DNA from: Escherichia coli
Lineage (GTDB): Bacteria > Pseudomonadota > Gammaproteobacteria > Enterobacterales > Enterobacteriaceae
Reading direction: 5' to 3' (one strand)
Length of the DNA: 64,000 nucleotides
Assembly: GCF_050920415.1 (NCBI RefSeq)
Contig: NZ_CP169309.1
Shown: positions 38,141-53,634 of the stretch, piece by piece
Numbering within the stretch: the first letter of the stretch is position 1
How the letters are laid out: every line of letters starts with the position of its first letter
The notes under the pieces: model-generated
What the model was told of the DNA's origin: nothing
The model's input: only the letters and a program-made list of their open reading frames with translations
Database searches by the model: none
Translations under genes and position numbers: made by a program

Positions 38141-38196
38141 ATGTATTCATTTCTATTCACTCTACACCATATTTTTCGGCGGTACAGGTGACGGTA

Positions 38197-38211
38197 TTAC
38201 CTTAAAGGTAT
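38197..38211. promoter_or_regulatory. Palindromic operator-like site TTACCTTAAAGGTAT upstream of integrase
   Basis: Member of the TTACCT-N3-AGGTAA family, 1 mismatch. Confidence 0.45.
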
Positions 38212-38253
38212 ACTCTCATACCGTCATGAAAATGGTTTCTATACGGGTGAATT

Positions 38254-39504
38254 GTGCTTACCGATACAAAATTAAAAAACCTCAAGCCGCAGGACAAACT
38301 GTACAAGGTCTCCGATCGTGACGGGCTGTATGTAGCTGTGCTTACGTCAGGCACGGTCTCGTTTCGCTATGACTACCGTATCAACGGTCGCCGCGAAACA
38401 CTGGTAATCGGGCAGTATGGGCGTGACGGTATCAGCCTGGCAGAAGCGCGAGAAGAACTGATTGCTGCAAAGAAGCTGCTTAAAGCAGGCCAGTCGCCGG
38501 CTGCGGCTAAACGTGACGGTATCAAAAAGATTCGTGGTGCCGAGACGTTTGCGGTACATACCGACAGTTATATGAAACACGTCATCCTGGCTGACAGTAC
38601 CCGCGCAATGAAGCAGGCGGTGATCGACCGTGACATACTTCCGGTTCTTGGCAACAAAATGATGGCTGAAATTACCACATCGATGGTTCGTGATTTGTGT
38701 GACCGGATTGTCGAACGCGGTGGTCGGGCAACAGCAGTACAGGCCAGGGAGATCATCAGCAGCGTATACCGTCACGCCAATGACCGTGGTCATGGTTTGT
38801 TTAATCCTGCGGCTGACATTAAACCTTCGTCTATCGCCATATTTAAACCACGAGAGCGAACACTGACACCAGAAGAAATTGGCCTGTTCTTCCGCACGCT
38901 GGATGCCATTGGTGCTATGGGCACTATGAAAATGGCTTTAAAGCTGGTGCTTATCACTATGGTTCGTAAAGGCGAATTCACCAATGCAACGTGGGATGAA
39001 ATAGATTTTAAAAAATGGACATGGACAATTCCTTCAGACCGCATGAAGGGAAGCCGGGCGCACGTTATTTACCTGCCTAAACAGGCACAGGATATATTGG
39101 TTGGGTTGCAGATGTGCGCTGGTGGAAGTGAATATCTGGTTCCTGGTCGTTACAATTTCCGGAAGCCATTATCTAATGCCGCGCTGAACTCTCTGATCGA
39201 CAGAACGGTGAAAATAATAAATGAAGATGGTGAGCATATTCAGGGCTTCACCGTACACGATATGCGCCGTACAGCCAGTACGTTGTTGCATGAGGCTGGT
39301 TATCCTTCAGACTGGATTGAAAAGGCTCTGGCACATGAGCAGAAAGGTGTGCGCGCCGTATATAACAAAGCGGAATACGCCAGACAGCGCGCCTACATGT
39401 TGCAGCAGTGGGCCGATATGATTGATTCCTGGATTAACGGGGAGCATACGGATCTGATTCCGTTCTCCCCGTCGAAGTTTGAGAAGTGGATGGCGGGGGA
39501 ATAA
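38254..39504 (+). CDS. int: Tyrosine integrase (P4-type, N-terminal arm-binding domain)
   Basis: 416 aa, GTG start; N-terminal DUF4102-like region and C-terminal catalytic region (HDMRRTASTLL...ALAHE...Y). Confidence 0.85.
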   Translation: MLTDTKLKNLKPQDKLYKVSDRDGLYVAVLTSGTVSFRYDYRINGRRETLVIGQYGRDGISLAEAREELIAAKKLLKAGQSPAAAKRDGIKKIRGAETFAVHTDSYMKHVILADSTRAMKQAVIDRDILPVLGNKMMAEITTSMVRDLCDRIVERGGRATAVQAREIISSVYRHANDRGHGLFNPAADIKPSSIAIFKPRERTLTPEEIGLFFRTLDAIGAMGTMKMALKLVLITMVRKGEFTNATWDEIDFKKWTWTIPSDRMKGSRAHVIYLPKQAQDILVGLQMCAGGSEYLVPGRYNFRKPLSNAALNSLIDRTVKIINEDGEHIQGFTVHDMRRTASTLLHEAGYPSDWIEKALAHEQKGVRAVYNKAEYARQRAYMLQQWADMIDSWINGEHTDLIPFSPSKFEKWMAGE

Positions 39505-39507
39505 CGT

Positions 39508-39702
39508 TTAATAGTTCTGCTGATTTTCTTCCATCTCTGCTTCTGCTGCCAGTGATTCAATTTTGTTTTCGAATATTGCTGACAGTGTTGCAAATTCAGC
39601 ATCAGTGACGGCGGGAATTGGAACAAACCTGATCCCGCTGTGTGCAAGCATGTTTGCAGTTTCAAGGCATTTTCTTAAATCTGCTGGTGATGCCCTGTTC
39701 AT
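39508..39702 (-). CDS. Small hypothetical protein (64 aa), start overlaps the methyltransferase stop (ATGA)
   Basis: Sub-frame of ORF 39508-39822 beginning MNRASPADLRK; ATGA overlap with upstream gene suggests translational coupling. Confidence 0.3.
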   Translation of the reverse strand: MNRASPADLRKCLETANMLAHSGIRFVPIPAVTDAEFATLSAIFENKIESLAAEAEMEENQQNY

Positions 39703-40349
39703 GCAGCACGCTCCCGCCCCTGGTTGTCTGTTGGTGACAGCGGAGAATTGCTGAATGCATTTGTTAATCCGCCAATATCCAACGCGTATCCAGGGTGTAG
39801 TTGCACTGCCGGGTCTTCGCACTGATTACCCCAAACATCGAAGCCATGAGACGACTGGCGGGCGAATAGTTCAATGCGAGAAACATCGCCTAACAATTGC
39901 ACAAGTTTTTCACGAACGACATCTGGTTTTCTTGAGTGCTCAAGCCGCGGTGCGGTAAATGACTGAACGATCCCTGCATTAATGCGCGGAGGTAGTTTTC
40001 CCTTTACCGCAAACAGGCAATCTTCACTATTGGCGCGAGTCATGTGTCCCATACCCATAACAAGTTTATCTGGTTGTCGACTACCACATTTTATCCACGT
40101 GAAGCCCTTCATCGTCATCAGACGGAATCCCCAGGCTTCAACAACTTTTAGTGCTTCGAGTGGTTGTGTTGGCACCCACCACATGGCCAACAGACAGTTT
40201 TCATCGGCCAAATCCCACACAGGAAGGCGGCAGATATCCAGCACACTCATAACCGGATATTTAAAACCGGCACCGCGATTACCATCTGCGGCTTTGTCCC
40301 GGTATACCCAGGGTGGATCTGCATAGATTAGTGTGTATTTCTTAGTCAT
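39699..40349 (-). CDS. MT-A70 family DNA N6-adenine methyltransferase (orphan, no cognate nuclease seen)
   Basis: ORF 39699-40361; ATG at 40349 (MTKKYTLIYADPPW); DPPW catalytic motif. Confidence 0.7.
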   Translation of the reverse strand: MTKKYTLIYADPPWVYRDKAADGNRGAGFKYPVMSVLDICRLPVWDLADENCLLAMWWVPTQPLEALKVVEAWGFRLMTMKGFTWIKCGSRQPDKLVMGMGHMTRANSEDCLFAVKGKLPPRINAGIVQSFTAPRLEHSRKPDVVREKLVQLLGDVSRIELFARQSSHGFDVWGNQCEDPAVQLHPGYALDIGGLTNAFSNSPLSPTDNQGRERAA

Positions 40350-40641
40350 AAACCACCCCACAACATCCTATGCCGCTATAGTCGCCACGGCGAAGGCCGT
40401 TACCTTTTGTGATACATTGGTCCCTGCGAACCGCGATCCTTGCACGTTCAACATCACCAGAAGCAACATCCATACACTGAAGCCAAAGGTGGGCGGCAAT
40501 GCGGAACTGCCCTTTTTTCTCTCTTTCAATCGCGCGTTTTTCGATCTCTATCGCCGCAGGAGTAACGGCGACAATCTTTGACGGACTGCGCATTGAAACC
40601 TTGTTCATGTGATATTTTTCAAGTCGGCTTAACTTTCTCAC
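40342..40641 (-). CDS. PerC-family transcriptional regulator-like protein
   Basis: 99 aa; pattern ...IEREKKGQFRIAAHLWLQCMD...ERARIAVRRDQC resembles the PerC/Pch signature as I recall it. Confidence 0.45.
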   Translation of the reverse strand: MRKLSRLEKYHMNKVSMRSPSKIVAVTPAAIEIEKRAIEREKKGQFRIAAHLWLQCMDVASGDVERARIAVRRDQCITKGNGLRRGDYSGIGCCGVVYD

Positions 40642-40750
40642 TTAATCCAACCCTCTCTGAAAATTAATGCCAGCAGATAAAGCCATGCTGAAACAGAGGC
40701 CAGGAATAAGTACCATCCTGACCATTTGCTCCAGTGCCTTAGCAGCGCAC

Positions 40751-40999
40751 TCATGCAGCGTTGCTCACGGGACGATATACACGTTGCTGAACAGGAGGTT
40801 TTTTACCCTGGAACTCTGCCGGGCTTGCTGCCTGACGTTCATCAAGCCAACGCTCAACTTCGTCACGGTTCCATGCGCAGCGTTTGTCAGTGATATACCA
40901 GCGTTTAGGAAATTCCCCTGCGCGCTCCATACGGTCGATAGTGCTCCATGACAGTGGCACCACCGCCAGGAGTTCCTTCTTACCTAATGCACCTTTCAT
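40751..40999 (-). CDS. AlpA-family phage transcriptional regulator / excisionase-like HTH protein
   Basis: 82 aa; HTH with ...LSWSTIDRMERAGEFPKR...WNRDEVERWL typical of AlpA/Xis. Confidence 0.7.
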   Translation of the reverse strand: MKGALGKKELLAVVPLSWSTIDRMERAGEFPKRWYITDKRCAWNRDEVERWLDERQAASPAEFQGKKPPVQQRVYRPVSNAA

Positions 41000-41048
41000 A
41001 AATACCTCTCTTGGTTGCAGTGCGGCGCGTGTGGCGCCGCGGTGGTGG

Positions 41049-41930
41049 TTACATAGATGTTTCGTTTAATTCTTCCCGACGAACGCTGTAAACGTCGGTG
41101 GCTTTTGCCAGCAGTTCGTCATCATCTGAAAGTTTTTGTGCAATGTATTTGTAAGCCTTATCCAGTTCGGAGACAGTGCTGTAATTCATCGCTGCGCTGG
41201 TAAAGGCCATCAGCATTTCTTCTGGATCACGGCTATCCGCTTTACGAGTTTGCTCATCAGGCTTTTTCACTGGTTTAGCGTTGATCAGACTGTTCATTCC
41301 CGCAGCAGTAGTTGTTTGCGGAGTAATGTCTCGCTCAACGCGCGGTGCCGTTTCCTGTAATTCGTCAGGGGTGTAAACACCGAGAAGCACATCAGGAGCG
41401 TGCAGGCGAGCCCATCGTTTCGTGCAAAGATAGGCAAGCTGCTGGCGCGGATCCTGTTCCCACAATGGAGAGTTACGCACTCCGGCTTGCGCCATACTGA
41501 TGGTAAGCTCACGGGGTTCTGCTTCTCCTTTAAGAACTGCTGACACAGTTACCGTCAGATTCGGTGATTTATCTGTTTTGCCGTTAACATTCGACCAGTC
41601 ACCGCTCCAGCGATAATTCAGGCGTGTCGCTAGCAGGCTGGAAGAGGATACGACCGCGTTTACCAACTGTGCTTCGTAGCCTAACGTTCCGTTTACCACA
41701 TGCGTTTTCTGCGCCACGGCGAAAGGGTTCATTCCCCACTGTGCCGCCTGCATGGTCACCGCCAGACAATCGGCAGTTTTGCCTTCAAGATGTTTCGGTA
41801 CAGTCGCTTTGCTTTGTGACATCAACTCCGCGAAACGCACCAGTTGATTCATGCCCTCCGGGCTGAAGATTGCCGCAGCAGTACCTACAGTTGCGCCTGG
41901 TTGTGATGTGATTGCGATATCATTGCTCAT
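41049..41930 (-). CDS. RecT-family single-strand annealing recombinase
   Basis: 293 aa; RecT-like core; directly downstream of and overlapping a PD-(D/E)XK exonuclease gene. Confidence 0.75.
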   Translation of the reverse strand: MSNDIAITSQPGATVGTAAAIFSPEGMNQLVRFAELMSQSKATVPKHLEGKTADCLAVTMQAAQWGMNPFAVAQKTHVVNGTLGYEAQLVNAVVSSSSLLATRLNYRWSGDWSNVNGKTDKSPNLTVTVSAVLKGEAEPRELTISMAQAGVRNSPLWEQDPRQQLAYLCTKRWARLHAPDVLLGVYTPDELQETAPRVERDITPQTTTAAGMNSLINAKPVKKPDEQTRKADSRDPEEMLMAFTSAAMNYSTVSELDKAYKYIAQKLSDDDELLAKATDVYSVRREELNETSM

Positions 41931-43050: not shown

Positions 43051-43051
43051 C

Positions 43052-44086
43052 TCAATATTTGATATACGCGTCCTGCACTTTGCCGCCAGCGATAGCCAAC
43101 ATTGCTTTCTGCGCGAATTCTTCGGGAATGCCTTGGGCTATCAGATCTGCGATTACTCTGCTGTTAACGGTACGGCGATGCTCTTTATCTGCAGCTCGGC
43201 GCGATTCTTCGTCGGCGATACGCTTCTGTTCGTCAAGGCGGGCTTTTTCTGCCGCCTCTTGGCGTCGGCGTTCCTCGGCAACGGCTTCTTCTTTTTCGCG
43301 TCGTGCACGCTGCTCTGCTTCAATTCGCTGACGTTCTGCTACTTCAGCACGTGCTTTTTCTTCCGCCGCCAGGCGTTCCGCAGCCTCAATTTCAGCTTTC
43401 GCTTTTTGTTCAGCTTCGAGCCTGGCCTGTTCAGCAGCTTCCCGGCGGATATTCTCTTCTCGCTCAATGCGCGCTTTTTCCTCCGCTTCTTTGCGAAGTC
43501 GCTCCAGCTCAGCGGCTTCATGCTCGCGTTTTTGAGCTACTGCGAGTGATTCTTCCAGTTTCTGGATGGTTGAATCCTTGGCTACTCCAGCTTCTGCTGC
43601 GTACTCCTGCCAACTTTCATCAAGTGCTACTGATTTAGCCTCTTGAATTCGTTCCTGAATATCAGATGATGGCAAGTAGTTTCCGGAGAGATCGATCACG
43701 TCAGCTAGTGCTCGCAAATTTGTCAGGCGTTGTTGCAGTGCTTCAGTGCGTAATTTCTCCGCATTTTCCCACTCGGTGAGTGGGCGGCGTACTTCATCAC
43801 GAAGCCGATCGCATTCGGTTACGAAGCGTCGTAACTCTGCTTCAACTACTTTCGGCTGTTCTTTCAGGCGTTTCAGATAATCACGTCCTGGTTTTTCTAC
43901 CGCTGTTTTACTTCTTGAAACCTTCGCAGCCAGAGATGCAATGCGCTTTCTGCCTTTGTCTGTGCTAATGTCAGGCACTTCATTAACACCTTCACGGATC
44001 TGCTCGAGAAACTTTTCCAGCCCTTTTTCAACGTAAATTCTTGGTGCCATGTCTGGTGTGATTTCGATGATTGATAATTCACTCAT
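43052..44086 (-). CDS. Hypothetical coiled-coil protein with E/R/A-rich low-complexity repeat region
   Basis: 344 aa; residues ~190-300 are almost pure E/A/R/K heptad-like repeats. Confidence 0.55.
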   Translation of the reverse strand: MSELSIIEITPDMAPRIYVEKGLEKFLEQIREGVNEVPDISTDKGRKRIASLAAKVSRSKTAVEKPGRDYLKRLKEQPKVVEAELRRFVTECDRLRDEVRRPLTEWENAEKLRTEALQQRLTNLRALADVIDLSGNYLPSSDIQERIQEAKSVALDESWQEYAAEAGVAKDSTIQKLEESLAVAQKREHEAAELERLRKEAEEKARIEREENIRREAAEQARLEAEQKAKAEIEAAERLAAEEKARAEVAERQRIEAEQRARREKEEAVAEERRRQEAAEKARLDEQKRIADEESRRAADKEHRRTVNSRVIADLIAQGIPEEFAQKAMLAIAGGKVQDAYIKY

Positions 44087-44244
44087 TTGCTAACCTCCTC
44101 CCATATCTCGTTATCGTTGGCCACATCGCGAGCTTCTTTGCTGACGAAAGCCCACTTAATGCCTTCCTGTAAGGTGCGGAACTTCCAGCTCATGAATCCG
44201 CATGCAGTAACGCAGTACCAACCGTTGATGATTTTCCACTGCAT
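44083..44244 (-). CDS. Small hypothetical protein (53 aa), first gene of leftward early operon
   Basis: Not in ORF track (below 60 aa); MQWKIINGWYCVTACGFMSWKFRTLQEGIKWAFVSKEARDVANDNEIWEEVSK; stop overlaps next start. Confidence 0.3.
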   Translation of the reverse strand: MQWKIINGWYCVTACGFMSWKFRTLQEGIKWAFVSKEARDVANDNEIWEEVSK

Positions 44245-44325
44245 AACTTGTTACCTCGGTCTGTTACCGTTGAGGTAATAATTATGCGTATCTGGTTTGA
44301 TGTCAATAGATATGAGTTAAAAAAA

Positions 44326-44340
44326 TTACCCGTTAGGTAA
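44326..44340. promoter_or_regulatory. Palindromic operator-like site TTACCCGTTAGGTAA at the leftward early promoter
   Basis: TTACCT-N3-AGGTAA family, 1 mismatch; lies between the repressor terminator and the first leftward early gene. Confidence 0.45.
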
Positions 44341-44350
44341 TCGAATAGGC

Positions 44351-44377
44351 AATAAAAAAGCCGCCATAAGGCGGCTT
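44351..44377 (-). terminator. Rho-independent terminator of the repressor gene (hairpin aagccgcc-ataa-ggcggctt, T-run on minus strand)
   Basis: Read directly; U-tract present only in the minus-strand orientation. Confidence 0.6.
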
Positions 44378-44397
44378 ACTTACTGAAAAATATGATT

Positions 44398-44982
44398 TTA
44401 TTGTTTGTTTTTTTCGTTCTGGTTGATGACAAATTCAATGTAACTTTCGATCTTTGCCTTCTCTGTTTCAGGTAACAATGCGTAGCGCGAGCGGTCATAG
44501 TTGATAGTTGCAGGGTCATGCGGATGAATCAGTAGTTCATATCCGTGACGCCCGAATGCAGATGCAACATTCTCCAGGGTGGAAATGGAAACGCTGACCT
44601 CATTGTTTAACAGGCGGCTGATTGTCACCTGGGCGACGCCGGATGCGCGGTGAAGTTTTCCCTGTGTTGAAAGGTCGCGGCTTTCGCTCATCCAGCGTTC
44701 CAGGTTGTGAGCCGCCAGCTGACCAATGTCGCTTGGGCCGACAGGCTGAAAACCTTCCTGAGAAAGCGAGCGATCGATATCAAGCCAGTTACGGGGTTTA
44801 TTGGCGGCAGCTTCAATTTTTCGCGCAACCTGGTCGCCGATAACCTTCTTGCCAAGAGCCCAGCGGTTTACCAGATTTGCCTGAGTTCCAAGTTTTTCTG
44901 CCATCCGCGTCTGAACACCATTGAATTCACGGTCGATCAAGTCGTTGAGATTTTGCCTGCGGACGTCCTGGATACTTTTCAT
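44398..44982 (-). CDS. Phage CI-like repressor (HTH, Phage_CI_repr-type)
   Basis: 194 aa; N-terminal HTH (QTRMAEKLGTQANLVNRWALGKK) and second HTH-like segment; divergent from a Cro-like gene across an operator-rich spacer. Confidence 0.55.
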   Translation of the reverse strand: MKSIQDVRRQNLNDLIDREFNGVQTRMAEKLGTQANLVNRWALGKKVIGDQVARKIEAAANKPRNWLDIDRSLSQEGFQPVGPSDIGQLAAHNLERWMSESRDLSTQGKLHRASGVAQVTISRLLNNEVSVSISTLENVASAFGRHGYELLIHPHDPATINYDRSRYALLPETEKAKIESYIEFVINQNEKNKQ

Positions 44983-45037
44983 TTTCTGGAAAATCGCCTC
45001 ATATATGAATCAGTAGATGATTCAATTTAAAGCAATA

Positions 45038-45100
45038 TTACCCAACAGGTAAATGCACCTCATAGGTAACTATCCTTGATTTTTGTTACCTTATGGGTGA
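45038..45100. promoter_or_regulatory. Divergent switch region with three operator-like palindromes (45038-45052, 45055-45069, 45086-45100)
   Basis: TTACCCAACAGGTAA, GCACCTCATAGGTAA, TTACCTTATGGGTGA; arrangement reminiscent of OR1-OR3 between cI and cro. Confidence 0.5.
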
Positions 45101-45136
45101 ATATTTATTATCTGAAATAAATATCAGGCAATAGCT

Positions 45137-45367
45137 ATGAGCGATAACGGACATTTCGATTTCAAAAAGCACTGGCTTGCACTTACTCCGGATGAGCGTG
45201 AAGCCTTCGCACAGGAAGCCGGAACGACGAGTCACTATATCCAGACTCACTTAACAGGTAAGCGAAAAATGCCAGGTAAAGTATTGATGAATGGGCTTTT
45301 TAAAGCCTGTAAAACAAGACAATGGCTGCGCTCAAAAGCAGAACTGGCATACTTCTTCTACTCATGA
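45137..45367 (+). CDS. Cro-like / YdaS-type HTH regulator
   Basis: 76 aa; HTH segment FAQEAGTTSHYIQTHLTGKRKMPGKVL; divergent from the CI-like gene. Confidence 0.5.
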   Translation: MSDNGHFDFKKHWLALTPDEREAFAQEAGTTSHYIQTHLTGKRKMPGKVLMNGLFKACKTRQWLRSKAELAYFFYS

Positions 45368-45388
45368 TATCCAGCTACAACCCTCTGT

Positions 45389-45412
45389 AGACCGCCATCC
45401 GGCGGTCTTTTC
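45389..45412 (+). terminator. Hairpin agaccgcc-atcc-ggcggtct followed by tttt
   Basis: Read directly after the cro-like gene stop. Confidence 0.5.
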
Positions 45413-45422
45413 ATATCTATTC

Positions 45423-45437
45423 GTACCTTAAAGGTAA
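45423..45437. promoter_or_regulatory. Palindromic operator-like site GTACCTTAAAGGTAA
   Basis: TTACCT-N3-AGGTAA family, 1 mismatch; upstream of the 45518 gene. Confidence 0.4.
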
Positions 45438-45517
45438 TAAAAAACCAAATCTGGTTGATCTTTTTTTTGTGTCAGCACAAAATAACCGTAATCCCAATAC
45501 TAATAACAGGGCTTACC

Positions 45518-45718
45518 ATGGAAATCATTACACGTATTGATGCCGCAAAGCGCGGACTTAAACGCTACTACACCGGAAAACCATGTAAGCACGGACATGA
45601 CAGTGAACGCTGGGTTTACAACGGACACTGTGTTGAGTGCACCATGGAATCAAACCGTCGCATTAGGGCAGAGATTAAGCAGATCATGATTAATTCCTCC
45701 CCACAACATTCAAGCTGA
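45518..45718 (+). CDS. Small putative zinc-binding phage protein (66 aa)
   Basis: ATG at 45518 within ORF 45455-45718; CKHGH...CVEC motif. Confidence 0.4.
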   Translation: MEIITRIDAAKRGLKRYYTGKPCKHGHDSERWVYNGHCVECTMESNRRIRAEIKQIMINSSPQHSS

Positions 45719-45733
45719 TAGCGGAGATTAATC

Positions 45734-46549
45734 ATGAGCAGACATGCAACAGATTGGGCCTGGGAGACAGATCCAGGCAGCTCATCATTAAAGCTCATAC
45801 TGCTCTCGATGGCTGACAGAGCCGATGAATATAACCTCTGCTACCCCAGCATAGAACGCCTCGTTAAAGACACTTGCCTGAATAAAAAAACCGTGCAGGC
45901 CGGGCTTATATCGCTCATGAAAATGGGGCTTATTTCAGATACCGGAGAGAGAAAGGGAGCGACGAAAAGAGTGCGGGTTTTCTCTCTTAATATAACCAAA
46001 AACGGGAACATTAAAGGCAACCGGGAAGGGAGTAATGAACCCGAAAACGGAAATGTTACCGAAAACGGGAATATACCCAAAAACGGGATGTTGAATGATC
46101 CCAAAAACGGGATGTTGAATGATCCCAAAAACGGGATCCAGAACCAGTCATATAACCAGTCATTTAACCAAGAGAGGGGGAGCAGGACAAAAACCGGGGA
46201 TTCTGTGCCTCATGACCCCGGCGCAAACAACGCCGTGATGAATAACTTTGTTCCTCCTGGTGGGCCAGGGCAATTAGGCAAATTTGTCATGCATGAACAA
46301 TGGCAACCATCAGATGACTTTCTTCGGAAAAGCTCATTGCAGGGAATCTACCTGGACAGTCTGCCAACGGCACAGGAACTTGCAGAGTTCAGAATTTACT
46401 GGATGGCTGAGGGTAAGGCATACCATCAGGCACAGTGGGAGCAGAAGCTGGCAAGGCGGCTGCAGATTAGCAGACAGAAGCAATCAACATTACCTGATAA
46501 CAACGTTCCGCACTGGAACAGCCCTGAAGCGTGGGAGGATTTCTTGTGA
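45734..46549 (+). CDS. Replication initiator, lambda O-like (N-terminal winged-helix domain, internal repeat linker, DnaT-like C-terminus)
   Basis: 271 aa; immediately upstream of and overlapping a clear lambda P homolog; coding sequence contains iteron-like repeats. Confidence 0.65.
   Translation: MSRHATDWAWETDPGSSSLKLILLSMADRADEYNLCYPSIERLVKDTCLNKKTVQAGLISLMKMGLISDTGERKGATKRVRVFSLNITKNGNIKGNREGSNEPENGNVTENGNIPKNGMLNDPKNGMLNDPKNGIQNQSYNQSFNQERGSRTKTGDSVPHDPGANNAVMNNFVPPGGPGQLGKFVMHEQWQPSDDFLRKSSLQGIYLDSLPTAQELAEFRIYWMAEGKAYHQAQWEQKLARRLQISRQKQSTLPDNNVPHWNSPEAWEDFL
45998..46136. repeat. Iteron-like array: six copies of (c/g)aaaacggga including a perfect 24-bp tandem duplication (46078-46101 = 46102-46125); candidate origin inside the O-like gene
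   Basis: Copies at 45998, 46043, 46061, 46078, 46102, 46126, followed by aaccagtcat x2 at 46142-46165. Confidence 0.55.
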
Positions 46550-47331
46550 ACAACGTTTTTACCGCGATACAAAACCGTGACGGAGAAGCCCTTTCTCGCA
46601 TGTCAGGTTATGAGCATCAATACGTCAACAATGACAATGTGGTGAACATGTCAGCAGAGAGGCTTGTTGATGCCCTTTTCAAACAGCTGAAACAACTGTT
46701 TCCGGCGGCAGTAGTAACCAACCTGAAGACGCCAGAGCAGGAAGTTGCTGCAAAACAGCAGTGGATTGCTGCGTTTGCCGAAGGTGGGATCCGAACCCGT
46801 GAACAGGTTTCTGCTGGTATGCGCCACGCTCGCGCCAGTGAGTCTCCGTTCTGGCCGTCGCCAGGGCAATTCATCAAGTGGTGTAAAGACAGCAAGATGG
46901 TTCTTGGCGTCACCATTGACGATGTGATGGCGGAGTTTCACCGGTACAGCAAGGAAAAAAGTTTATATCCTGGTGGTCCCGAAAGATTCCCGTGGCGACA
47001 TCCGGTTATGTACTGGGTCGTATGTGATACCCGCCGTGCAATGTATCAGCGCCAGCTTAGCGAGATTGAGGTTGAGAAACACGCGCGCAGGCTGCTCGAT
47101 GATTGGGCGAAAAAGGTGGCTTCCGGACAGCAGATACCCGATCCGGTGATCAGCATACAGGCAAAGCCAGAGCCCATGAGTACGCCTCCGGACACAGGGA
47201 GAGACGTTTACCATCCACCAGGGCGAAGTTTCGGGTGTATGCCTAACGCCGCCACCCTGGGGGGAATAACACCGGCGCAGTGGCTAATGGAGGAATACAG
47301 GCGGGGAAAGGCGGCAGGATTTATCAAGTAA
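46546..47331 (+). CDS. Replication protein P (lambda P-like helicase loader)
   Basis: Matches lambda P core (QWIAAFAEGGIRTREQVSAGMRHARASESPFWPSPGQFIKWCK vs lambda QWVLAFRENGITTMEQVNAGMRVARRQNRPFLPSPGQFVAWCR); GTG at 46546 with RBS gggagga, overlapping the O-like stop. Confidence 0.8.
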   Translation: MNNVFTAIQNRDGEALSRMSGYEHQYVNNDNVVNMSAERLVDALFKQLKQLFPAAVVTNLKTPEQEVAAKQQWIAAFAEGGIRTREQVSAGMRHARASESPFWPSPGQFIKWCKDSKMVLGVTIDDVMAEFHRYSKEKSLYPGGPERFPWRHPVMYWVVCDTRRAMYQRQLSEIEVEKHARRLLDDWAKKVASGQQIPDPVISIQAKPEPMSTPPDTGRDVYHPPGRSFGCMPNAATLGGITPAQWLMEEYRRGKAAGFIK

Positions 47332-47368
47332 TACCAGCGCGATAGCGCATTTTTTTACGTCTCAATAA

Positions 47369-47445
47369 TTACCTATAAGGTAACAAAATATTCTAAACTC
47401 TATTGATTTAGTGTCTTATGTGGTTTTTAATTACCTCAGAGGTAA
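47369..47445. promoter_or_regulatory. Two perfect operator-like palindromes TTACCTATAAGGTAA (47369-47383) and TTACCTCAGAGGTAA (47431-47445) flanking a putative promoter
   Basis: Perfect matches to TTACCT-N3-AGGTAA; the second ends 3 bp before the ATG at 47449. Confidence 0.5.
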
Positions 47446-47448
47446 ATC

Positions 47449-47796
47449 ATGAGAAAACAGATACAGGCTCTTGGTCGACTCAAAACAGGCCAGATGAACA
47501 AAACAGAATCTGCGTATTGCCAGCACCTTGAGCAGCGTAAACGTGCAGGGGAAATCGCCTGGTATCGATTCGAGGGTATCAAGCTGCGGTTAGCTGACAA
47601 CACGTTCTATACGCCCGATTTCGCTGTGATGCTCGCCACCGGCGAGATGGAGCTGCACGAAGTGAAAGGGGGATTCTGGACCGATGACGCCAGAGTGAAA
47701 ACCAAAGTCGCCGCAGATCAGTATCCGTTCCGAATCATCGGGGTAACGGTTAAGCCAAAGAAAGCAGGTGGTGGCTGGAACATCGAAGAGTTCTGA
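47449..47796 (+). CDS. DUF1064-like phage protein (putative nucleic-acid-binding/nuclease-like)
   Basis: 115 aa; motifs GEIAWYRFEG...YTPDF...HEVKGG recalled for DUF1064. Confidence 0.5.
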   Translation: MRKQIQALGRLKTGQMNKTESAYCQHLEQRKRAGEIAWYRFEGIKLRLADNTFYTPDFAVMLATGEMELHEVKGGFWTDDARVKTKVAADQYPFRIIGVTVKPKKAGGGWNIEEF

Positions 47797-47857
47797 ATCG
47801 ACGATCTTTTTAGTTATCAATGTAATCAATAAGTTATGTGGATAAGCGAGGGTAAAG

Positions 47858-48697
47858 ATGGAAAGTAATATCAAAGGGTTAGTTTCCGCCGGGCATGAGA
47901 TGGCTTCGGAACTGAAAGCAGAATGTGGTGCCGTTGATATGCGCAGTGTGGCAAAGCTGATCAGCGATTTGGCAACGCAACTGGAAGTGCAACTGGTGCG
48001 TGCTAATGCGCAGGACGAAGACAACCAGAGAGCCATTGAGTCAATTAAACAGGCTGATTCGGCTGTTAAGTTGGCACACGAGAAGTTTTCGGCGCTGGCG
48101 GCGAAACGTGCAATTCCAGCAATGGAACGCCTGTTAATGTTGCCAGCTGATGATGATTTGTTAAGTGAACAGGAACTTAAAGATTACGGTGTGGATATTG
48201 ATGCGCTCAACGCCTTCAAATTTCTGGCCGGACCAGAAACCGTGCTGGCACTACTGGATGAACGGGAAAGAAACCAGCAATACATCAAACGCCGTGACCA
48301 GGAGAACGAGGATATTGCGCTAACGGTAGGGAAGCTGAGAGTTGAGCTTGAGGAAGCAAAATCAAAACTCAACGAGCAGCGTGAGTATTACGAAGGTGTT
48401 ATCTCGGATGGAAGTAAGCGCATAGCAGAACTGGAAGCGCGGGAAATAAAACCAGCCAAAGGTGAAGTTCTGGTCGTTGTATCTGGTTTTACTGGTTGCG
48501 GAAAAAGCGCCATTGCCGGGGAAATAGAAATCGCGATGAAGGCTATTGGTGTACCGGTTAAGTGGACTAATGGCGATGCAGAAAAGCGCATGACTGGCGC
48601 TGACTGGCTGACTGCGATTGAGATGTACAAACCAACTGTGCGCATCGTGGAAGTTAATGTGCCCCGCGCCGCTGGCATTCGCATCAAAGGAAAGTGA
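47858..48697 (+). CDS. Hypothetical phage protein (279 aa), coiled-coil N-terminus plus globular C-terminus; possibly Ea22-like
   Basis: ORF with good coding character; family assignment not secure. Confidence 0.5.
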   Translation: MESNIKGLVSAGHEMASELKAECGAVDMRSVAKLISDLATQLEVQLVRANAQDEDNQRAIESIKQADSAVKLAHEKFSALAAKRAIPAMERLLMLPADDDLLSEQELKDYGVDIDALNAFKFLAGPETVLALLDERERNQQYIKRRDQENEDIALTVGKLRVELEEAKSKLNEQREYYEGVISDGSKRIAELEAREIKPAKGEVLVVVSGFTGCGKSAIAGEIEIAMKAIGVPVKWTNGDAEKRMTGADWLTAIEMYKPTVRIVEVNVPRAAGIRIKGK

Positions 48698-48698
48698 T

Positions 48699-48920: not shown

Positions 48921-48921
48921 T

Positions 48922-49119: not shown

Positions 49120-49129
49120 GGCATAACAA

Positions 49130-49915
49130 ATGACCACTATTACCAGAGAACAGGCACAGAAAATTATTGAAGCAGCCGATGAGGTTATTAGTGCGCTGGC
49201 CGGAACTAACGAGGATGTTCACCCTGGTAGCGATAACATGCTACGCCTGTGGGATGACCTGAATGACCGTTACGCGCCGCCGGAAGTTGTGCGTGAGCTG
49301 GCGCGTATCGTGCTGGCATCGCTGGAAGCAGAACCAGTTGCTTATATTTTCAAACATCCGGCCGGGAAATTATTCTGGGCTTTAACGGATGAAAGCAATA
49401 AAGAGCAAGCGGACGTTATTCCTGTTTATGCTGCCGCGCCTGCGTCGGTTGTGCCGGATGATGCATCAGGGTCGCTTGCTTATGCTTACAAAGAGCTTAC
49501 GCCTGAGATTATGCGCGGTCATATCGCTGTATTCGAGCGATATGGAATAGCCCCAAACGATAGCATTACCACAATTCAGGCACTGCGAATCGCGCTGGAT
49601 GGCATAGAGCGGAGCGACGCCATGCTTCATGGTGCCGAACCCGTAAGCCAAACTTACAAGTTGAACGAGCTATCTGGCAACTATCCGGCAACTCCGGATA
49701 GTTGGATAAGCTGTAGTGAGCGAATGCCGGAAAAGAACAAGAACGTGCTTATTTCGGTGAATTTCGACAGCTCTCTGGTTGAACCGCTAATATGCTCCGC
49801 ACGCTATACCGGAAGCACATTCCGGCGAGGAGAAGCAACGATTAAGCCGGGTAATGGTATTGAGCAGGCAACTCACTGGATGCCGCTACCGGAACCGCCG
49901 CAGGAGGTGAAGTAA
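49130..49915 (+). CDS. Phage protein with C-terminal DUF551-like domain
   Basis: 261 aa; C-terminal WISCSERMPE...ATHWMPLPEPP typical of DUF551. Confidence 0.5.
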   Translation: MTTITREQAQKIIEAADEVISALAGTNEDVHPGSDNMLRLWDDLNDRYAPPEVVRELARIVLASLEAEPVAYIFKHPAGKLFWALTDESNKEQADVIPVYAAAPASVVPDDASGSLAYAYKELTPEIMRGHIAVFERYGIAPNDSITTIQALRIALDGIERSDAMLHGAEPVSQTYKLNELSGNYPATPDSWISCSERMPEKNKNVLISVNFDSSLVEPLICSARYTGSTFRRGEATIKPGNGIEQATHWMPLPEPPQEVK

Positions 49916-50037
49916 TGAACAAGTGCAACGCTCTGCTTTATGCCATGGTGATTGGTTTCGGCCTGGCTGCTGGTATCCGGGTTTATATTGCCTGGGAGTC
50001 ATTAATCAATCTGGCGTGGAGTGCGATTCGTGGCTAA
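49915..50037 (+). CDS. Small hydrophobic protein (40 aa)
   Basis: MNKCNALLYAMVIGFGLAAGIRVYIAWESLINLAWSAIRG; ATG overlaps upstream stop (taATG); not in ORF track. Confidence 0.3.
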   Translation: MNKCNALLYAMVIGFGLAAGIRVYIAWESLINLAWSAIRG

Positions 50038-50368
50038 ATCCCCCGCAGAACGCAAAGCCGCGCAGCGCGCTCGGCAGTCCGCCGCCGGTGAGCGCAAAAT
50101 TGAACTGGTGCTGGATAAGCAGGAGCAGGAAATGCTGGAGCGTAACTGTGCCGCCCGTCGCCCTGGTCGTGCGCCGTATGAAATGAGCGAATACATCGCG
50201 TTACTGATCCGCCAGGATGATGCACGCGTGCGCGGGCGTATAAAATCGATCAGCAGAAAACGTTGCGGTAAGTGCGGCGAGAGAGTTCCAGTTAATTCAT
50301 GCCCGTGTAATGGTGACTCGCAATGCTGGGTGACTAAAGGCTGGCATGAAACGAAATTAATAGTGTGA
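50021..50368 (+). CDS. Hypothetical Cys-rich protein preceding terminase (start uncertain)
   Basis: 115-aa ORF with GTG start; CGKCGERVPVNSCPC motif; alternative ATG starts at 50132 or 50180. Confidence 0.35.
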   Translation: MRFVAKSPAERKAAQRARQSAAGERKIELVLDKQEQEMLERNCAARRPGRAPYEMSEYIALLIRQDDARVRGRIKSISRKRCGKCGERVPVNSCPCNGDSQCWVTKGWHETKLIV

Positions 50369-50486
50369 CATGTCACGAGTAGATTATGCATGATGAATTT
50401 GATGGATTTTGAATACTGCCGCCAACTATGGCGGCTTTATTTTGCATGGTACTATTACCACAACGGTAACTATTACCACGGTGGTT

Positions 50487-51083
50487 ATGATGCCTGCTGA
50501 ACCTAAAACCTATAAACGCAAATCAACGCAATTTAAGCCGCTCACAGCAATGCAGGAGGCTTATTGCCAGTCATACATCAAAACGCCTGAAAACCAGACT
50601 CAGGCAGCGATTAACGCAGGATTCTCCCCAAACACAGCGGCAGTTAAAGCCAGTGTCATGATGCGCGATGAACGCATTCAGAAACGGATTGCCGAGTTGA
50701 TGGAGGAGCGCAACAAACGAATGCGCGTCAGTGCTGATTACGTTCTCATGCGCCTGGTGGAGATCGACCAGATGGACGTGATCGACATCCTCAACGACGA
50801 TGGGAGCCTTAAACCAATCCGTGAGTGGCCGAAAATCTGGCGCACTACGCTTAGTGGCTTTGATCTGTCGTCGACCATCATGAACATGAACGAGGATTCG
50901 ATAGAGACAATCCTCAAAAAAATTAAATGGCCTGACAAGGTGAAGAACCTTGAGCTGATTGGTAAGCATGTTGATGTCAACGCGTTCAAAGAACGTCTGG
51001 ATGTTAATGTGAATGTGACAATTGCTGATCGCATAGCAGCAGCCAGGAAGCGACTCAAAGAACGTCAGGATGGTAATCAGTGA
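50487..51083 (+). CDS. Terminase small subunit
   Basis: ORF 50409-51083; start at MMPAEPK; position directly upstream of and overlapping terminase large subunit. Confidence 0.6.
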   Translation: MMPAEPKTYKRKSTQFKPLTAMQEAYCQSYIKTPENQTQAAINAGFSPNTAAVKASVMMRDERIQKRIAELMEERNKRMRVSADYVLMRLVEIDQMDVIDILNDDGSLKPIREWPKIWRTTLSGFDLSSTIMNMNEDSIETILKKIKWPDKVKNLELIGKHVDVNAFKERLDVNVNVTIADRIAAARKRLKERQDGNQ

Positions 51084-52555
51084 CAGATACAGCGTTATCT
51101 CCTGAAGAGCAGTTGATCGAGGATATTGCAGGGTTCACTCACGATCCGCTTGGCTATGCCCTCTATGCGTTCCCGTGGGGGGAAGAAGGGACTGAACTGG
51201 CACATGCTACCGGCCCACGTCAGTGGCAGGCTGATGCGTTCCGAGAGATACGTGATCACCTGCAGAATCCAGCGACGCGCTATCAGCCGCTTATGCTGGC
51301 ACGCGCTTCTGGTCACGGTATTGGTAAATCCGCATTCATCTCAATGCTGATCAACTGGGGCATGTCCACTTGCGAGGATTGTAAGGTCGTGGTGACCGCC
51401 AACACCGACAACCAGCTACGAACGAAGACCTGGCCGGAAATTATCAAGTGGTCGAACCTTGCTATCACGAAAGACTGGTTTACCTGTACCGCTACCGCGA
51501 TGTACAGCAATGATCCTGGGCACGACAAGCGGTGGCGAGCTGACGCAATCCCCTGGTCTGAGCACAACACTGAGGCATTCGCCGGACTACACAACGAGCG
51601 CAAACGCATCATCGTGGTATTCGATGAAGCGTCGAACATTGCGGATCTGGTGTGGGAAGTTGCTGAGGGTGCGCTTACGGACGAAGACACTGAGATTATC
51701 TGGGTGGCGTTCGGAAACCCTACACGTAACACCGGGCGTTTCCGCGAATGTTTCCGCAAATATAAACACCGCTGGAAAACTGCGCAGATTGACAGCCGGA
51801 CGGTGGAAGGCACTAACAAACAGCAGTTGCAGAAATGGGTTGATGACTACGGGGAAGACAGCGACTTCGTTAAAATCCGTGTGCGCGGCATATTCCCGGA
51901 TGCATCTGAATTGCAGTTTATCCCTACCGGACTTACTGACGAGGCAATGAAACGGGTGGTAACCGCTGCGCAGGTTGCACATGCTCCGGTGATAATCGGC
52001 GTTGACCCGGCATACTCCGGCGTTGATGACGCTGTGATATACCTGCGGCAGGGGCTGCATAGTAAGGTGCTGTGGACCGGCAACAAGACCACTGATGATC
52101 TGATTATGGCGAAGCGTATCGCTGACTTTGAAGACCAGTATCAGGCTGACGCGGTGTTCATCGACTTCGGTTACGGTACCGGGCTGAAGTCAATCGGTGA
52201 CGGTTGGGGGCGCACATGGCAACTTGTTCCGTTCGGTGGCGCGTCTACTGACCCGCAGATGCTCAACAAGCGTGGGGAGATGTTCAACTCATGCAAGACA
52301 TGGCTGAGGCTGGGCGGCATGCTGGATGACCAGGAAACAGCGGACGACCTGTCGGCGGCAGAGTACAAAGTTCGAGTGGACGGTAAAATCGTTATCGAAC
52401 CGAAGGAAGATATCAAGGAGCGGCTTGGGCGTTCGCCGGGTAAAGGCGATGCGCTACTGCTGACGTTTGCGTTCCCTGTGTCTAAGCGTCTGCGAATTCC
52501 CGGGCAGCAGAACCAGCAAGGCAAGGCCATTACAGATTACGATCCCTATGCTTAA
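51080..52555 (+). CDS. Terminase large subunit
   Basis: 491 aa; ATPase domain (Walker A-like ASGHGIGKS, Walker B VVFDEAS) and nuclease domain. Confidence 0.85.
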   Translation: MTDTALSPEEQLIEDIAGFTHDPLGYALYAFPWGEEGTELAHATGPRQWQADAFREIRDHLQNPATRYQPLMLARASGHGIGKSAFISMLINWGMSTCEDCKVVVTANTDNQLRTKTWPEIIKWSNLAITKDWFTCTATAMYSNDPGHDKRWRADAIPWSEHNTEAFAGLHNERKRIIVVFDEASNIADLVWEVAEGALTDEDTEIIWVAFGNPTRNTGRFRECFRKYKHRWKTAQIDSRTVEGTNKQQLQKWVDDYGEDSDFVKIRVRGIFPDASELQFIPTGLTDEAMKRVVTAAQVAHAPVIIGVDPAYSGVDDAVIYLRQGLHSKVLWTGNKTTDDLIMAKRIADFEDQYQADAVFIDFGYGTGLKSIGDGWGRTWQLVPFGGASTDPQMLNKRGEMFNSCKTWLRLGGMLDDQETADDLSAAEYKVRVDGKIVIEPKEDIKERLGRSPGKGDALLLTFAFPVSKRLRIPGQQNQQGKAITDYDPYA

Positions 52556-52645
52556 TCCGTTAGCGGGGATAATGACGGAGATATCCTCTGGTGAGGATAA
52601 AACAAAGCCAGCTCATCGGCTGGCTGTTTGTGACATGTCACGGTG

Positions 52646-53017
52646 TTATTGCTCGCTTAACTTCTGCTTCAGCAAGTAACCTTCAAGCATCCAGATTTTG
52701 TTTACAGCATTCTGCCGGGCAATCTTCCGACCAATTTCCGCATCAAAGTTTTCCGGGCTTGCACAGGCGCTCTCTCCGGTGACGGTGAAGCCATTGCGCA
52801 GCACCAGAACGCAGAACGTCAGCAGAGAAAGTGATTCGTGCGGCTGGTAGTTTACCTCTCCGCCAGTATGTTTCGCTTTTATGGCTACGCCAAAGATACC
52901 ATCTTCTGCTGTGAAATATGCCTCCTGAGCAATAATACTCTCGATATGGTCTGGCGTAACGCGCGGCGCGGCTAAACCTTTAGCCTGAATTTCAGATTCA
53001 ATGTCTTTGTCACTCAT
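52646..53017 (-). CDS. Hypothetical protein on opposite strand within late region (possibly Gp49/Sf6-gp66-like)
   Basis: 123 aa; antisense to surrounding late operon and adjacent to tRNA; moron-like placement. Confidence 0.5.
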   Translation of the reverse strand: MSDKDIESEIQAKGLAAPRVTPDHIESIIAQEAYFTAEDGIFGVAIKAKHTGGEVNYQPHESLSLLTFCVLVLRNGFTVTGESACASPENFDAEIGRKIARQNAVNKIWMLEGYLLKQKLSEQ

Positions 53018-53221
53018 AGTCTAATCTCACCTTAAAAAAATGCCCGGCGAACCGGGCGAACTGGAAGCAATGAGTTATGCCTTCCGTGGCTGTACTGGTT
53101 TACAGCATGAAGCCATCGCAATGGCGTCCTGCTGTAAAAAGGGCGGTGATAGTCCTTCAAGGGAAACCATCACCGCCAAGCCCCTGGAACTTCTGGCATC
53201 ACGGTCCTTAGGCGTGATTCT

Positions 53222-53298
53222 GGCGTGGCATGCAGGATTCGAACCTGCGACCGACCGCTTAGAAGGCGGTTGCTCTGTCCAACTGAGCTAATGCCACA
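53222..53298 (-). tRNA. tRNA-Arg (anticodon UCU), argU-like, prophage-encoded
   Basis: Folded by hand: acceptor GTGGCAT/ATGCCAC, D-arm GCTC..GAGC, anticodon stem ACCGC/GCGGT with loop CTTCTAA, T-arm GCAGG-TTCGAAT-CCTGC, discriminator G, CCA. Confidence 0.8.
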
Positions 53299-53619
53299 AC
53301 GCTGAGAGCACTTAGCCTGTTAAGGCGCCACACTTTGTCGCGGCTCCATAAATGCTCTCATCGTTGCACCCTCGTCTCTTCCGAGGCGTCACACCGAATC
53401 GCCGGGATGGTGAATCCCCGTGCGCGGAATAAAACCGCTCGACTTGCACATTCCGGCTACCTGGTTCGTTTGCCCGAGCAAGGGAGGGTGCCCATTAAAC
53501 GTATCCAGACCGCTATCGGCGCATGTGCCATACGCCGTACTGCTCAAAATAAAATCTCACTCCACCTGTTCAATTTAACGACAAGCCAGTCAGGTTAATA
53601 ACAGGAATGCACTCTCTGC

Positions 53620-53634
53620 TTACCTGAAAGGTAA
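53620..53634. promoter_or_regulatory. Perfect operator-like palindrome TTACCTGAAAGGTAA upstream of late structural genes
   Basis: Perfect match to TTACCT-N3-AGGTAA, about 90 bp upstream of the 53725 ORF. Confidence 0.45.

Follow-up and report, generated by a model that had tools for sequence, protein, structure and literature searches.

The Rep/Ant switch of the Salmonella phage SPC32H was reportedly described by Kim et al. in 2016, with the PDB entries 5D50 and 5D4Z. Rep of this phage is a tetramer that sits on palindromic DNA and is released by Ant (PMC9638917), and its C-terminus has a tetramerisation fold of the DNA-looping type (PMC9986798). The same 2023 paper, from which we also take the domain names of Rep, notes that the way in which SPC32H Rep represses has seen no extensive characterisation at the structural level (PMC9986798). 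The repressor of phage ZX5 and phiV10 ORF40 are identical in sequence; overexpression of the ZX5 repressor abolished free phage and lowered holin transcripts by 99.97% (PMC9782041). In the RefSeq record of the Salmonella phage epsilon15 (NC_004775.2) seven ATTACC-N5-GGTAAT sites at scattered positions, equivalent to those described here, are annotated as "protein_bind: repressor / lysogeny", annotations that may be predictions only. Oddly, the record leaves three sites in the rep/cro spacer as well as the int and lysis sites unannotated.

Here, we describe the corresponding sites in an Escherichia coli prophage that occupies positions 38047-64000 of the window, the whole stretch of 64,000 nucleotides analysed. 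The element belongs to the phiV10/epsilon15 type of Uetakevirus prophages and is inserted at guaA. Of the 5,426 complete E. coli genomes in the collection searched, 561 (~10%) have a region closely related to its immunity and replication part. We conclude that the TTACC-N5-GGTAA palindromes of this prophage are very probably operators of its own lysogeny repressor, Rep, a prediction made from the sequence and its relatives.

The repressor and its relatives

The two regulatory genes of the immunity region are:

44398-44982, minus strand: rep, 194-aa lysogeny repressor, 100% identical to phiV10p40
45137-45367, plus strand: cro-like gene, 76-aa protein, match to PHROG 35 "transcriptional repressor" (E 5.6e-13)

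The 194-aa protein had been labelled CI-like in the initial annotation and named as a candidate binder of the palindromes. As a candidate it gains support, however not as a CI of the lambda type, which we reject: a Pfam search returned helix-turn-helix families only and no LexA/S24 self-cleavage domain, and the protein is a full-length homologue of SPC32H Rep, which likewise has no such domain (5D50_A; E 4e-42 over query residues 1-190, phmmer against PDB). The prophage is thus of the Rep/Ant-type Uetakevirus class, and this designation replaces the looser label. Rep is 43% identical to SPC32H Rep and keeps the aromatic residues of the tetramer interface (F187/F190 of SPC32H align with Y181/F184 here). 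Identity to epsilon15 Rep is also 43% overall, with the divergence mainly in the middle and C-terminal domains. The recognition helix NLVNRW is invariant in the four phages compared (this prophage, epsilon15, SPC32H and Tyrion) and nearly invariant among 86 homologues, and Rep homologues at only 52-59% identity still use TTACC.

The operator set

The following sites and promoters were mapped; palindromic sites are given without strand, and promoters are read from the sequence.

38197-38211: operator-like site ahead of int, TTACCTTAAAGGTAT, its right half overlapping a -10-like TATACT
44264-44278: predicted proximal operator of the leftward early promoter, TTACCGTTGAGGTAA, one mismatch
44278-44306, minus strand: predicted leftward early promoter, TTGACA-17 nt-AATTAT, 10 of 12 consensus matches
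44326-44340: predicted distal operator of the leftward promoter, TTACCCGTTAGGTAA, with 62 bp between its centre and that of 44264
45038-45052: predicted rep/cro spacer operator nearest rep, OR3-like position
45055-45069: predicted middle operator of the rep/cro spacer, GCACCTCATAGGTAA, degenerate, 17 bp from 45038
45086-45100: predicted operator in the spacer and -10 of the rightward promoter of the cro-like gene, OR1-like position
45423-45437: predicted single operator upstream of the replication genes, just past the cro terminator (45389-45408)
47369-47383: predicted distal operator of the resolvase (DUF1064) promoter, perfect palindrome
47403-47431, plus strand: predicted promoter, TTGATT-17 nt-TTTAAT, with an operator on each side
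47431-47445: predicted proximal operator of the resolvase promoter, perfect palindrome, 62 bp from 47369
50455-50469: predicted operator with perfect core, TTACCACAACGGTAA, between a terminator (50418-50435) and terS
50473-50487: weak second copy, TTACCACGGTGGTTA, 18 bp downstream of 50455, abutting the terS start codon
53620-53634: predicted operator, perfect palindrome, upstream of a gp3-like ORF and the portal gene

All nine sites of the initial annotation are present, in place and in sequence, but that list had overlooked 44264 and 50455; there is in addition the weak copy at 50473. The window thus holds 11 good sites and one weak one, every one of them intergenic. The palindrome reported earlier, TTACCT-N3-AGGTAA, is real; the core kept across the copies is, however, TTACC-N5-GGTAA, with position 6 and its mirror position variable. 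Seven copies in the window have a perfect core and four a near-perfect one, and they carry the same ATTACC-N5-GGTAAT palindrome as epsilon15.

The set is far denser than expected. In 100 dinucleotide shuffles the perfect TTACCT-N3-AGGTAA is expected 0.00 times, against 3 copies found, and with up to two mismatches 1.17 +/- 1.08 times, against 14, of which 13 lie in the prophage part. Non-coding DNA makes up 8.5% of the prophage bases and yet holds all 11 strong sites (P about 2e-12), so the confinement to intergenic regions proposed earlier holds; the base composition of these regions predicts 0.0025 perfect cores where 7 were found. An unbiased census of 5-N5-5 palindromes returned TTACC seven times in the prophage part, any other at most twice, and no TTACC palindrome in the host part of the window. 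Perfect cores occur 7 times per 26 kb of prophage versus 2 times per 197 kb of E. coli host DNA. The enrichment is borne out by a scoring matrix built from the epsilon15 and Tyrion sites only, which gives 10 matches scoring 14 bits or more in the prophage part versus 2 in the same 197 kb; per kb, the motif is about 25-40 times rarer in this host DNA. Weak matches at 45247 (within the cro-like gene), 63150 and 1860 (host DNA) look like chance matches.

Individual sites differ in how secure they are. The least secure is 38197, because two inverted copies of an integrase arm-type 10-mer, GTGACGGTAT, flank it, and its match may be owed to these neighbouring repeats; its imperfect GGTAT half recurs in epsilon15, SPC32H and Tyrion, but there the entire region is conserved. 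At the leftward early promoter, whose predicted -35 is kept in the four phages, there is not one operator, as had been thought, but two: 44264 adjoins the -10 and extends over the predicted start site, and 44326 stands 19 nt upstream of the -35. The three sites in the divergent spacer, between the rep start (44982) and the start of the cro-like gene (45137), are likewise present, but their centre-to-centre spacings of 17 and 31 bp are not those of lambda OR1-OR3. Judged from the sequence, 45038 would overlap the -35 and spacer of the rep promoter. The left half of 45055 reads GCACC, and the site scores below 10 bits with the matrix built from other phages; epsilon15 and SPC32H have a perfect core at the equivalent place. 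No clear sigma-70 promoter was found beside 50455 and 53620, which are homologous to the annotated epsilon15 sites at 12-27 and 2931-2947.

Sites in syntenic positions occur in epsilon15, SPC32H and Tyrion and also in prophages more distant than these, and in alignments the half-sites are invariant between phages while the N5 and the flanks vary. SPC32H carries the operator core at the equivalent positions of its genome. In epsilon15 it is found upstream of terS, gp3 and the resolvase gene and in the leftward promoter region, with operators again paired at 62 bp at the leftward and resolvase promoters, and a further site in the ant/tailspike spacer is shared with the near-identical sister prophage L002. 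Differences are a third leftward-promoter site in epsilon15 and the absence there of a site after the cro terminator; the counterpart of 45423 is present in Tyrion. The recurrence of one palindrome at the same places supports the earlier proposal of a single regulator with operators far beyond the immunity region. That the set is more extensive than a classic lambda-type switch also stands as a comparison with lambda; its wide spread is not new, because it is already the recorded norm for Uetakevirus.

Which protein reads the sites

Rep would be built of an N-terminal DNA-binding domain with a helix-turn-helix, a dimerisation domain in the middle and a tetramerisation domain at the C-terminus. 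Each TTACC half-site would be read by one of a pair of N-terminal domains. For almost all transcription units of the window (int, leftward early, rep/cro, replication, resolvase, terS and gp3/portal) the sites appear to lie on or beside the -35/-10 elements; sites also stand ahead of the antirepressor, tailspike and lysis units of the sister prophage. From this placement it follows that Rep would shut each unit directly in the lysogen, and a single early switch with a cascade would not be needed there. Physical binding by Rep and its occupancy of individual sites in vivo are predicted here. Induction would proceed through an SOS-controlled antirepressor, Ant, and not through self-cleavage of Rep. 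The window ends before the ant region; in L002 a LexA box (10495-10510) is located 22 nt upstream of the gene (from 10532) for an 85-aa Ant homologue, and a Rep operator adjoins this gene. The sister prophage resembles SPC32H in this small LexA-controlled Ant homologue and differs from it in having an additional BRO-N type antirepressor with its own operators.

The cro-like protein might instead be the main or only reader of the sites, or share them with Rep as CI and Cro do in lambda. Its gene has the divergent position typical of cro and the PHROG 35 match noted above, the protein is 76-84% identical across the genus, and its putative helix-turn-helix EAGTTSHYIQTHLTG is invariant across the four motif-bearing phages. 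Conservation therefore fits the cro-like protein as well as Rep, and because it is conserved like the DNA-binding domain of Rep, covariation cannot tell which of the two reads the sites. However, sites before int, terS, portal, lysis and ant suit a repressor that maintains the lysogen and hardly a lytic-phase protein, the epsilon15 record credits the sites to the repressor, and lytic genes were silenced by overexpressing the identical repressor alone (PMC9782041). The role as a DNA binder also finds no support in Pfam or PDB, in neither of which the protein has a match. We consider a leading role of the cro-like protein improbable. It may bind the sites alongside Rep, and it is quite possible that the two proteins share those of the rep/cro spacer, which is compatible with Rep as the main reader.

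It is very improbable that occupancy is set by a host DNA-binding protein such as the antitoxin MqsA. The MqsA palindrome is AACCT-N3-AGGTT, and its centre, ACCT-N3-AGGT, does occur in the perfect copies (PMC4894380). However, the T is invariant here (TTACC) where MqsA requires an A (AACCT), position 6, which MqsA requires, varies, the motif is rare in host DNA as given above, and it accompanies Rep homologues in prophages of Escherichia, Salmonella, Enterobacter and Serratia. Nor do we expect that the palindromes act as RNA hairpins in termination, processing or translational control, which we regard as highly unlikely. A hairpin of 5-6 bp is possible at each site, the right half of 47431 is also the ribosome-binding site of the ORF starting at 47449, and in the epsilon15 record a predicted RNase III site coincides with the copy next to int. 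These hairpins are weak, however (-3.3 to -4.2 kcal/mol, z between -1.3 and -2.2), and where one half of a copy is imperfect, the other half carries no compensating change. Several copies are located upstream of the -35, so that the promoter they accompany would not transcribe them, and an Rfam search of 38000-64000 matched one tRNA and no family at the palindromes. Finally, although both the motif and the intergenic regions are AT-rich, a chance origin of the cluster in such DNA has virtually no standing, being already refuted by the shuffle and composition counts and by the conservation of site positions between genera.

A 62-bp module around two predicted promoters

The geometry of the paired sites deserves attention. 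At the leftward early and the resolvase promoters the operators bracket a predicted sigma-70 promoter in the order operator, 19 nt, -35, 17 nt, and a -10 that abuts the second operator, with 62 bp between the operator centres. Among 120 viral loci, 123 core pairs are spaced by 62 bp and 21 by 63 bp. All of the 104 distinct viral 62-bp modules have TTGAnn at 35-40 and a -10-like hexamer at 58-63. The sequence between the paired operators is only about 60% identical and yet free of insertions and deletions. A Serratia relative has 75 bp at its leftward promoter. As far as we have checked, the accessible literature holds no earlier description of this geometry.

The paired operators would be centred near -62 and +1, and 62 bp corresponds to about six helical turns. 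One Rep tetramer, having two pairs of DNA-binding domains, could hold both operators and trap the promoter between them. The fixed layout suggests such a clamp on one face of the helix, with a very small loop or wrap; we put this forward tentatively, as a real possibility that may well turn out otherwise. The spacing could alternatively be ancestral and kept by promoter geometry alone, without looping. The arrangement resembles the short-range looping repressors of lac O1-O3, gal OE-OI, TP901-1 CI and pLS20 Rco, in which two operators flank one promoter, stand whole helical turns apart and are bound by a tetramer with a tetramerisation domain of the looping type (PMC9986798). It differs in that the spacing is only 62 bp and fixed, and looping by Rep is our inference.

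Compared with the CI/Cro systems of lambda and P22, the prophage shares divergent repressor and cro genes with three operators between them, a second operator set at the leftward early promoter and operators that overlap -35/-10 elements. It differs in the missing S24 peptidase domain of the repressor, which in the lambda type is C-terminal and goes with RecA-assisted cleavage, in operators spread over at least seven intergenic regions (seven in the window) and not two (OL and OR), and in the rep/cro spacings, which are 23-24 bp in the lambda-type switch. Its rightward units are modules of terminator, operator and promoter, and neither the window sequence nor the alignments gave a sign of an antitermination cascade in them.

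The operator set is a tidy case of a known system and nothing new in kind, and none of these results overturns current understanding. For annotation, the gain is 11-12 mappable operators in the window for a Rep/Ant-type Uetakevirus prophage. Phages of the phiV10 type serve as reporter phages for E. coli O157, and therefore knowledge of the operators could aid their engineering. The 62-bp pair offers a concrete DNA target for testing the "trans" tetramer model from the SPC32H Rep crystal structure. If the clamp is true, it would, together with the layout of terminator, operator and promoter units, amount to a flat, cascade-free repression scheme for the genus. The prophage is a clean example of a temperate phage whose maintenance repressor seems to act directly on each of the transcription units.

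A recurrent palindrome in the intergenic regions of the prophage

The prophage begins at 38047 and is integrated at the 3' end of guaA, with the attachment core attgagtgggaatgatt at 38047-38063 (cf. PMC9782041). It is 97-98% identical to the Escherichia phages phiV10, phiv142-3 and PAS61 (genus Uetakevirus), and close relatives of its 4-kb immunity and replication region (window 44000-48000) are found in 561 of 5,426 complete E. coli genomes. The window ends within the prophage; a complete version, 98-99.7% identical, is the sister prophage L002 of strain SCU-116.

The initial annotation listed nine copies of TTACCT-N3-AGGTAA, confined to intergenic regions. All nine are present as described; the list was, however, not complete, since the sites at 44264 and 50455 had been overlooked. 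The sites, together with the two divergent regulator genes, are as follows.

Predicted operators and regulator genes of the prophage
38197: operator-like site, upstream of int
44264 and 44326: operators, leftward early promoter
44398-44982, minus strand: rep, 194-aa CI-like lysogeny repressor
45038, 45055 and 45086: operators, rep/cro spacer
45137-45367, plus strand: gene of the 76-aa cro-like protein
45423: operator, after the cro terminator
47369 and 47431: operators, upstream of the DUF1064 resolvase gene
50455, with a weak copy at 50473: operator, between a terminator and terS
53620: operator, upstream of the gp3-like ORF and the portal gene

Three perfect copies occur in the window (47369, 47431 and 53620) and none in 100 dinucleotide-preserving shuffles. 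With up to two mismatches there are 14 copies, compared to 1.17 +/- 1.08 expected from the shuffles, and 13 of them lie to the right of 38047; the copy at 1860 in host DNA looks like a chance occurrence. When the 5-N5-5 palindromes of the prophage part were all counted without bias, TTACC came up seven times and every other palindrome at most twice; the same count gave no TTACC palindrome for the host sequence of the window. Comparison with three diverged relatives, epsilon15 (L003), SPC32H (L004) and Enterobacter phage Tyrion (L005), defines the conserved core as TTACC-N5-GGTAA, mostly with A and T flanks and with variable inner positions. Perfect cores number seven in the 26 kb of prophage, where intergenic base composition predicts 0.0025. 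The E. coli background, 197 kb pooled from host sequence of the window, the flanks of L002 and three 50-kb stretches of the SCU-116 chromosome, has two; by chance about five cores would be expected in 5 Mb. Against circularity, a matrix was trained on the epsilon15 and Tyrion sites only; at 14 bits or more it matched 10 times within the prophage sequence of the window and twice across those 197 kb, and hence the motif is not equally frequent in the host DNA sampled. The confinement to intergenic regions is borne out as well, as the non-coding 8.5% of the prophage contains all 11 strong sites (P about 2e-12). Core and matrix searches found no motif sites in the 10 kb of structural genes at 53635-64000. 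Two host look-alikes at 23500 and 25067, near-identical and 1.57 kb apart, carry one mismatch (TGACCGTAA[C/T]GGTAA); they are probably repeat copies inside a long, internally repeated host gene and unrelated to the prophage.

Rep as the predicted reader of the sites

The RefSeq record of epsilon15 (NC_004775.2) holds seven features named "protein_bind: repressor / lysogeny" that read ATTACC-N5-GGTAAT. They are located upstream of terS, upstream of gp3, in the ant/tailspike spacer, at the leftward promoter (three) and upstream of the resolvase gene, and these are the same scattered positions that we see in this prophage. The phiV10 record contains no repressor-binding features (record positions 11786-39104). 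The synteny with the annotated epsilon15 sites supports the earlier interpretation that the copies would form the operator set of one regulator.

The 194-aa Rep is 100% identical to phiV10p40, and its residues 1-190 match the crystallised SPC32H repressor (PDB 5D50, E 4e-42). Its Pfam content is restricted to helix-turn-helix domains; an S24 peptidase domain was not found by Pfam. SPC32H Rep is a tetramer in which palindromic DNA is bound by N-terminal domain pairs from different dimers, and it is released by the antirepressor Ant (PMC9638917). The protein is built from a DNA-binding domain, a middle dimerisation domain and a C-terminal tetramerisation fold of the DNA-looping type (PMC9986798). 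Given this architecture, the stronger Pfam HTH_3 match of Rep (residues 106-147) falls in the dimerisation domain, and by analogy the N-terminal domain (residues about 20-67) is predicted to read the DNA. In phage ZX5, whose repressor is identical in sequence to phiV10 ORF40, overexpression of this repressor left no free phage and reduced holin transcripts by 99.97% (PMC9782041).

When six intergenic regions were aligned across the four phages, the half-sites proved invariant, in contrast to the N5 and most of the flanking bases, and a search of related prophages, as had been proposed, recovered the same half-site also in divergent ones. All four phages share the Rep recognition helix NLVNRW, although their Rep proteins are as little as 43% identical overall, and the helix is near-invariant in 86 database homologues (NLVNRW, NLVSRW, NLINRW, NLISRW or NVISRW). 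The best 80 viral loci all encode an identical Rep; the three most divergent loci fetched still use TTACC, and in prophages with a Rep of 52-59% identity, one of them from Serratia, TTACC-N5-GGTAA is the only recurrent palindrome.

Both the CI-like and the cro-like protein had been named as candidate binders. The cro-like protein, for which we found no Pfam or PDB homologue, is as conserved as Rep, and since the recognition helix hardly varies, covariation does not separate the two. That both proteins use the sites in the rep/cro spacer is plausible. The cro-like protein as sole reader of all sites is unlikely, however, because the site locations and the repressor overexpression data both disfavour it. 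A host factor such as MqsA (AACCT-N3-AGGTT; PMC4894380) shares the central ACCT-N3-AGGT but not the invariant base, and the motif moves with the phage; we therefore rejected it. An RNA-level hairpin or terminator can be dismissed: the hairpins are weak (-3.3 to -4.2 kcal/mol), several copies lie upstream of a -35, imperfect copies lack compensating changes, and an Rfam search of 38000-64000 found only a tRNA.

Individual sites and the sister prophage

With Rep as the predicted reader, the single sites differ in how securely they can be assigned. The site at 50455 seemed coding because the TTG taken as start of the mechanical ORF (50409-51083), and also of terS in the RefSeq annotation of the sister genome, precedes the terminator and the two operators. 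Its epsilon15 homologue lies before terS, and by this comparison translation of terS probably begins with the ATG around 50487. The copy at 38197 is a probable but insecure operator. It adjoins GTGACGGTAT, a 10-mer annotated in epsilon15 as integrase binding site, of which four perfect copies are found within 38188-38775 (38188, 38423 and 38513 on the plus strand, 38766 on the minus strand) and a near-perfect inverted copy at 38218-38227 on the minus strand. As inverted repeats, 38188 and 38218 flank the motif copy, and together they can form a hairpin of -16 kcal/mol; the homologous stretch is an RNase III site in the epsilon15 record. The right half of the copy (GGTAT) also makes the -10-like TATACT, which is TATAAT in epsilon15. 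There is no footprint contrast at this position in the four-phage alignment, because the whole stretch is conserved.

A convincing sigma-70 promoter on the rightward strand was not found beside 50455 and 53620. A leftward candidate adjoining 53620 (TAGACA, 18 nt, AATTAT) was rejected, since none of epsilon15, SPC32H and Tyrion conserves it. In front of the gp3-like ORF, some 50 nt (53665-53716) are almost identical in these three phages while the surrounding DNA is divergent, and this block carries an isolated GGTAA half-site whose distance from the 53620 operator is exactly 62 bp. A search for further copies, as of a late-promoter motif, found the block nowhere else in the prophage; it may serve as a late promoter or as an activator site.

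Two further regions were noted. The DnaT-like replication gene (45734-46549) contains six iteron-like 24-nt direct repeats at 45988-46140 (core CCCAAAAACGGGA; spacing 45, 18, 18, 24 and 24), probably the phage replication origin by analogy with lambda, whose ori lies inside gene O. Between terL and the gp3-like gene there is a leftward-facing insert (52646-53297) with these features.

Features of the insert between terL and the gp3-like gene
52646-53017, minus strand: Gp49-family ORF
53090-53105: LexA-like box CTGTACTGGTTTACAG, which may be chance (two found in the window versus 0.85 expected)
53221-53297, minus strand: tRNA-Arg(TCT)

In L002, further sites are found in the ant/tailspike spacer, upstream (two, 93 bp apart) and downstream (one) of a BRO-N antirepressor gene (11560-11667 and 12720-12734 of L002, respectively) and upstream of the lysis cassette. 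The stretch 10441-10789 of L002 contains a Rep operator and an adjoining LexA box (CTGTATAAACATACAG, 10495-10510), followed directly by the gene of an 85-aa homologue of SPC32H Ant (10532-10789). Induction of SPC32H reportedly takes the route SOS, Ant, Rep (Kim and Ryu, in 2013), and the L002 layout matches this route. With an Ant homologue and a BRO-N type protein, the prophage may have two antirepressors.

Operator pairs and promoter geometry

The predicted leftward early promoter (minus strand) consists of operator 44340-44326, 19 nt, TTGACA, 17 nt, AATTAT and operator 44278-44264, which begins on the last base of the -10. The predicted resolvase promoter reads operator 47369-47383, 19 nt, TTGATT, 17 nt, TTTAAT and operator 47431-47445. 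The geometry of the two modules is exactly equal, while otherwise they are only 58% identical. In both cases this layout places the operators near -62 and +1, 62 bp apart. In the rep/cro spacer, 45086 would lie within the spacer and -10 of a predicted rightward promoter and 45038 would overlap the -35 (TTTACC) and spacer of the putative rep promoter, with the degenerate 45055 between them.

IMG/VR was scanned for core pairs at any spacing from 47 to 77 bp. Among the 120 loci returned, which are related phages so that the counts are not independent events, 123 pairs are spaced at 62 bp, 21 at 63 bp and at most six at every other distance. The 62-bp pairs comprise 104 distinct sequences, each with TTGAnn at positions 35-40 and a -10-like hexamer at 58-63; gap and spacer are only about 60% identical between modules, with no insertions or deletions. 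These results are strong evidence that the 62-bp geometry is constrained.

The rightward units each open with an intrinsic terminator that is followed by one or two operators.

Heads of the rightward units
45389-45408: terminator, then operator 45423
about 47340-47356: terminator, then operators 47369 and 47431
50418-50435: terminator, then operators 50455 and 50473

We saw no sign of lambda-style antitermination in these units (45389-45437, 47340-47445 and 50418-50487), and the terminator and operators at the head of each unit suggest a genome of separately guarded modules. Judged by sequence comparison, the system is not of a new type: it belongs with the Rep/Ant switches of epsilon15-like phages, for which scattered repressor sites are already annotated in epsilon15. 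What may be new is the fixed 62-bp operator pair that brackets a promoter, and its implication for how the Rep tetramer engages DNA.
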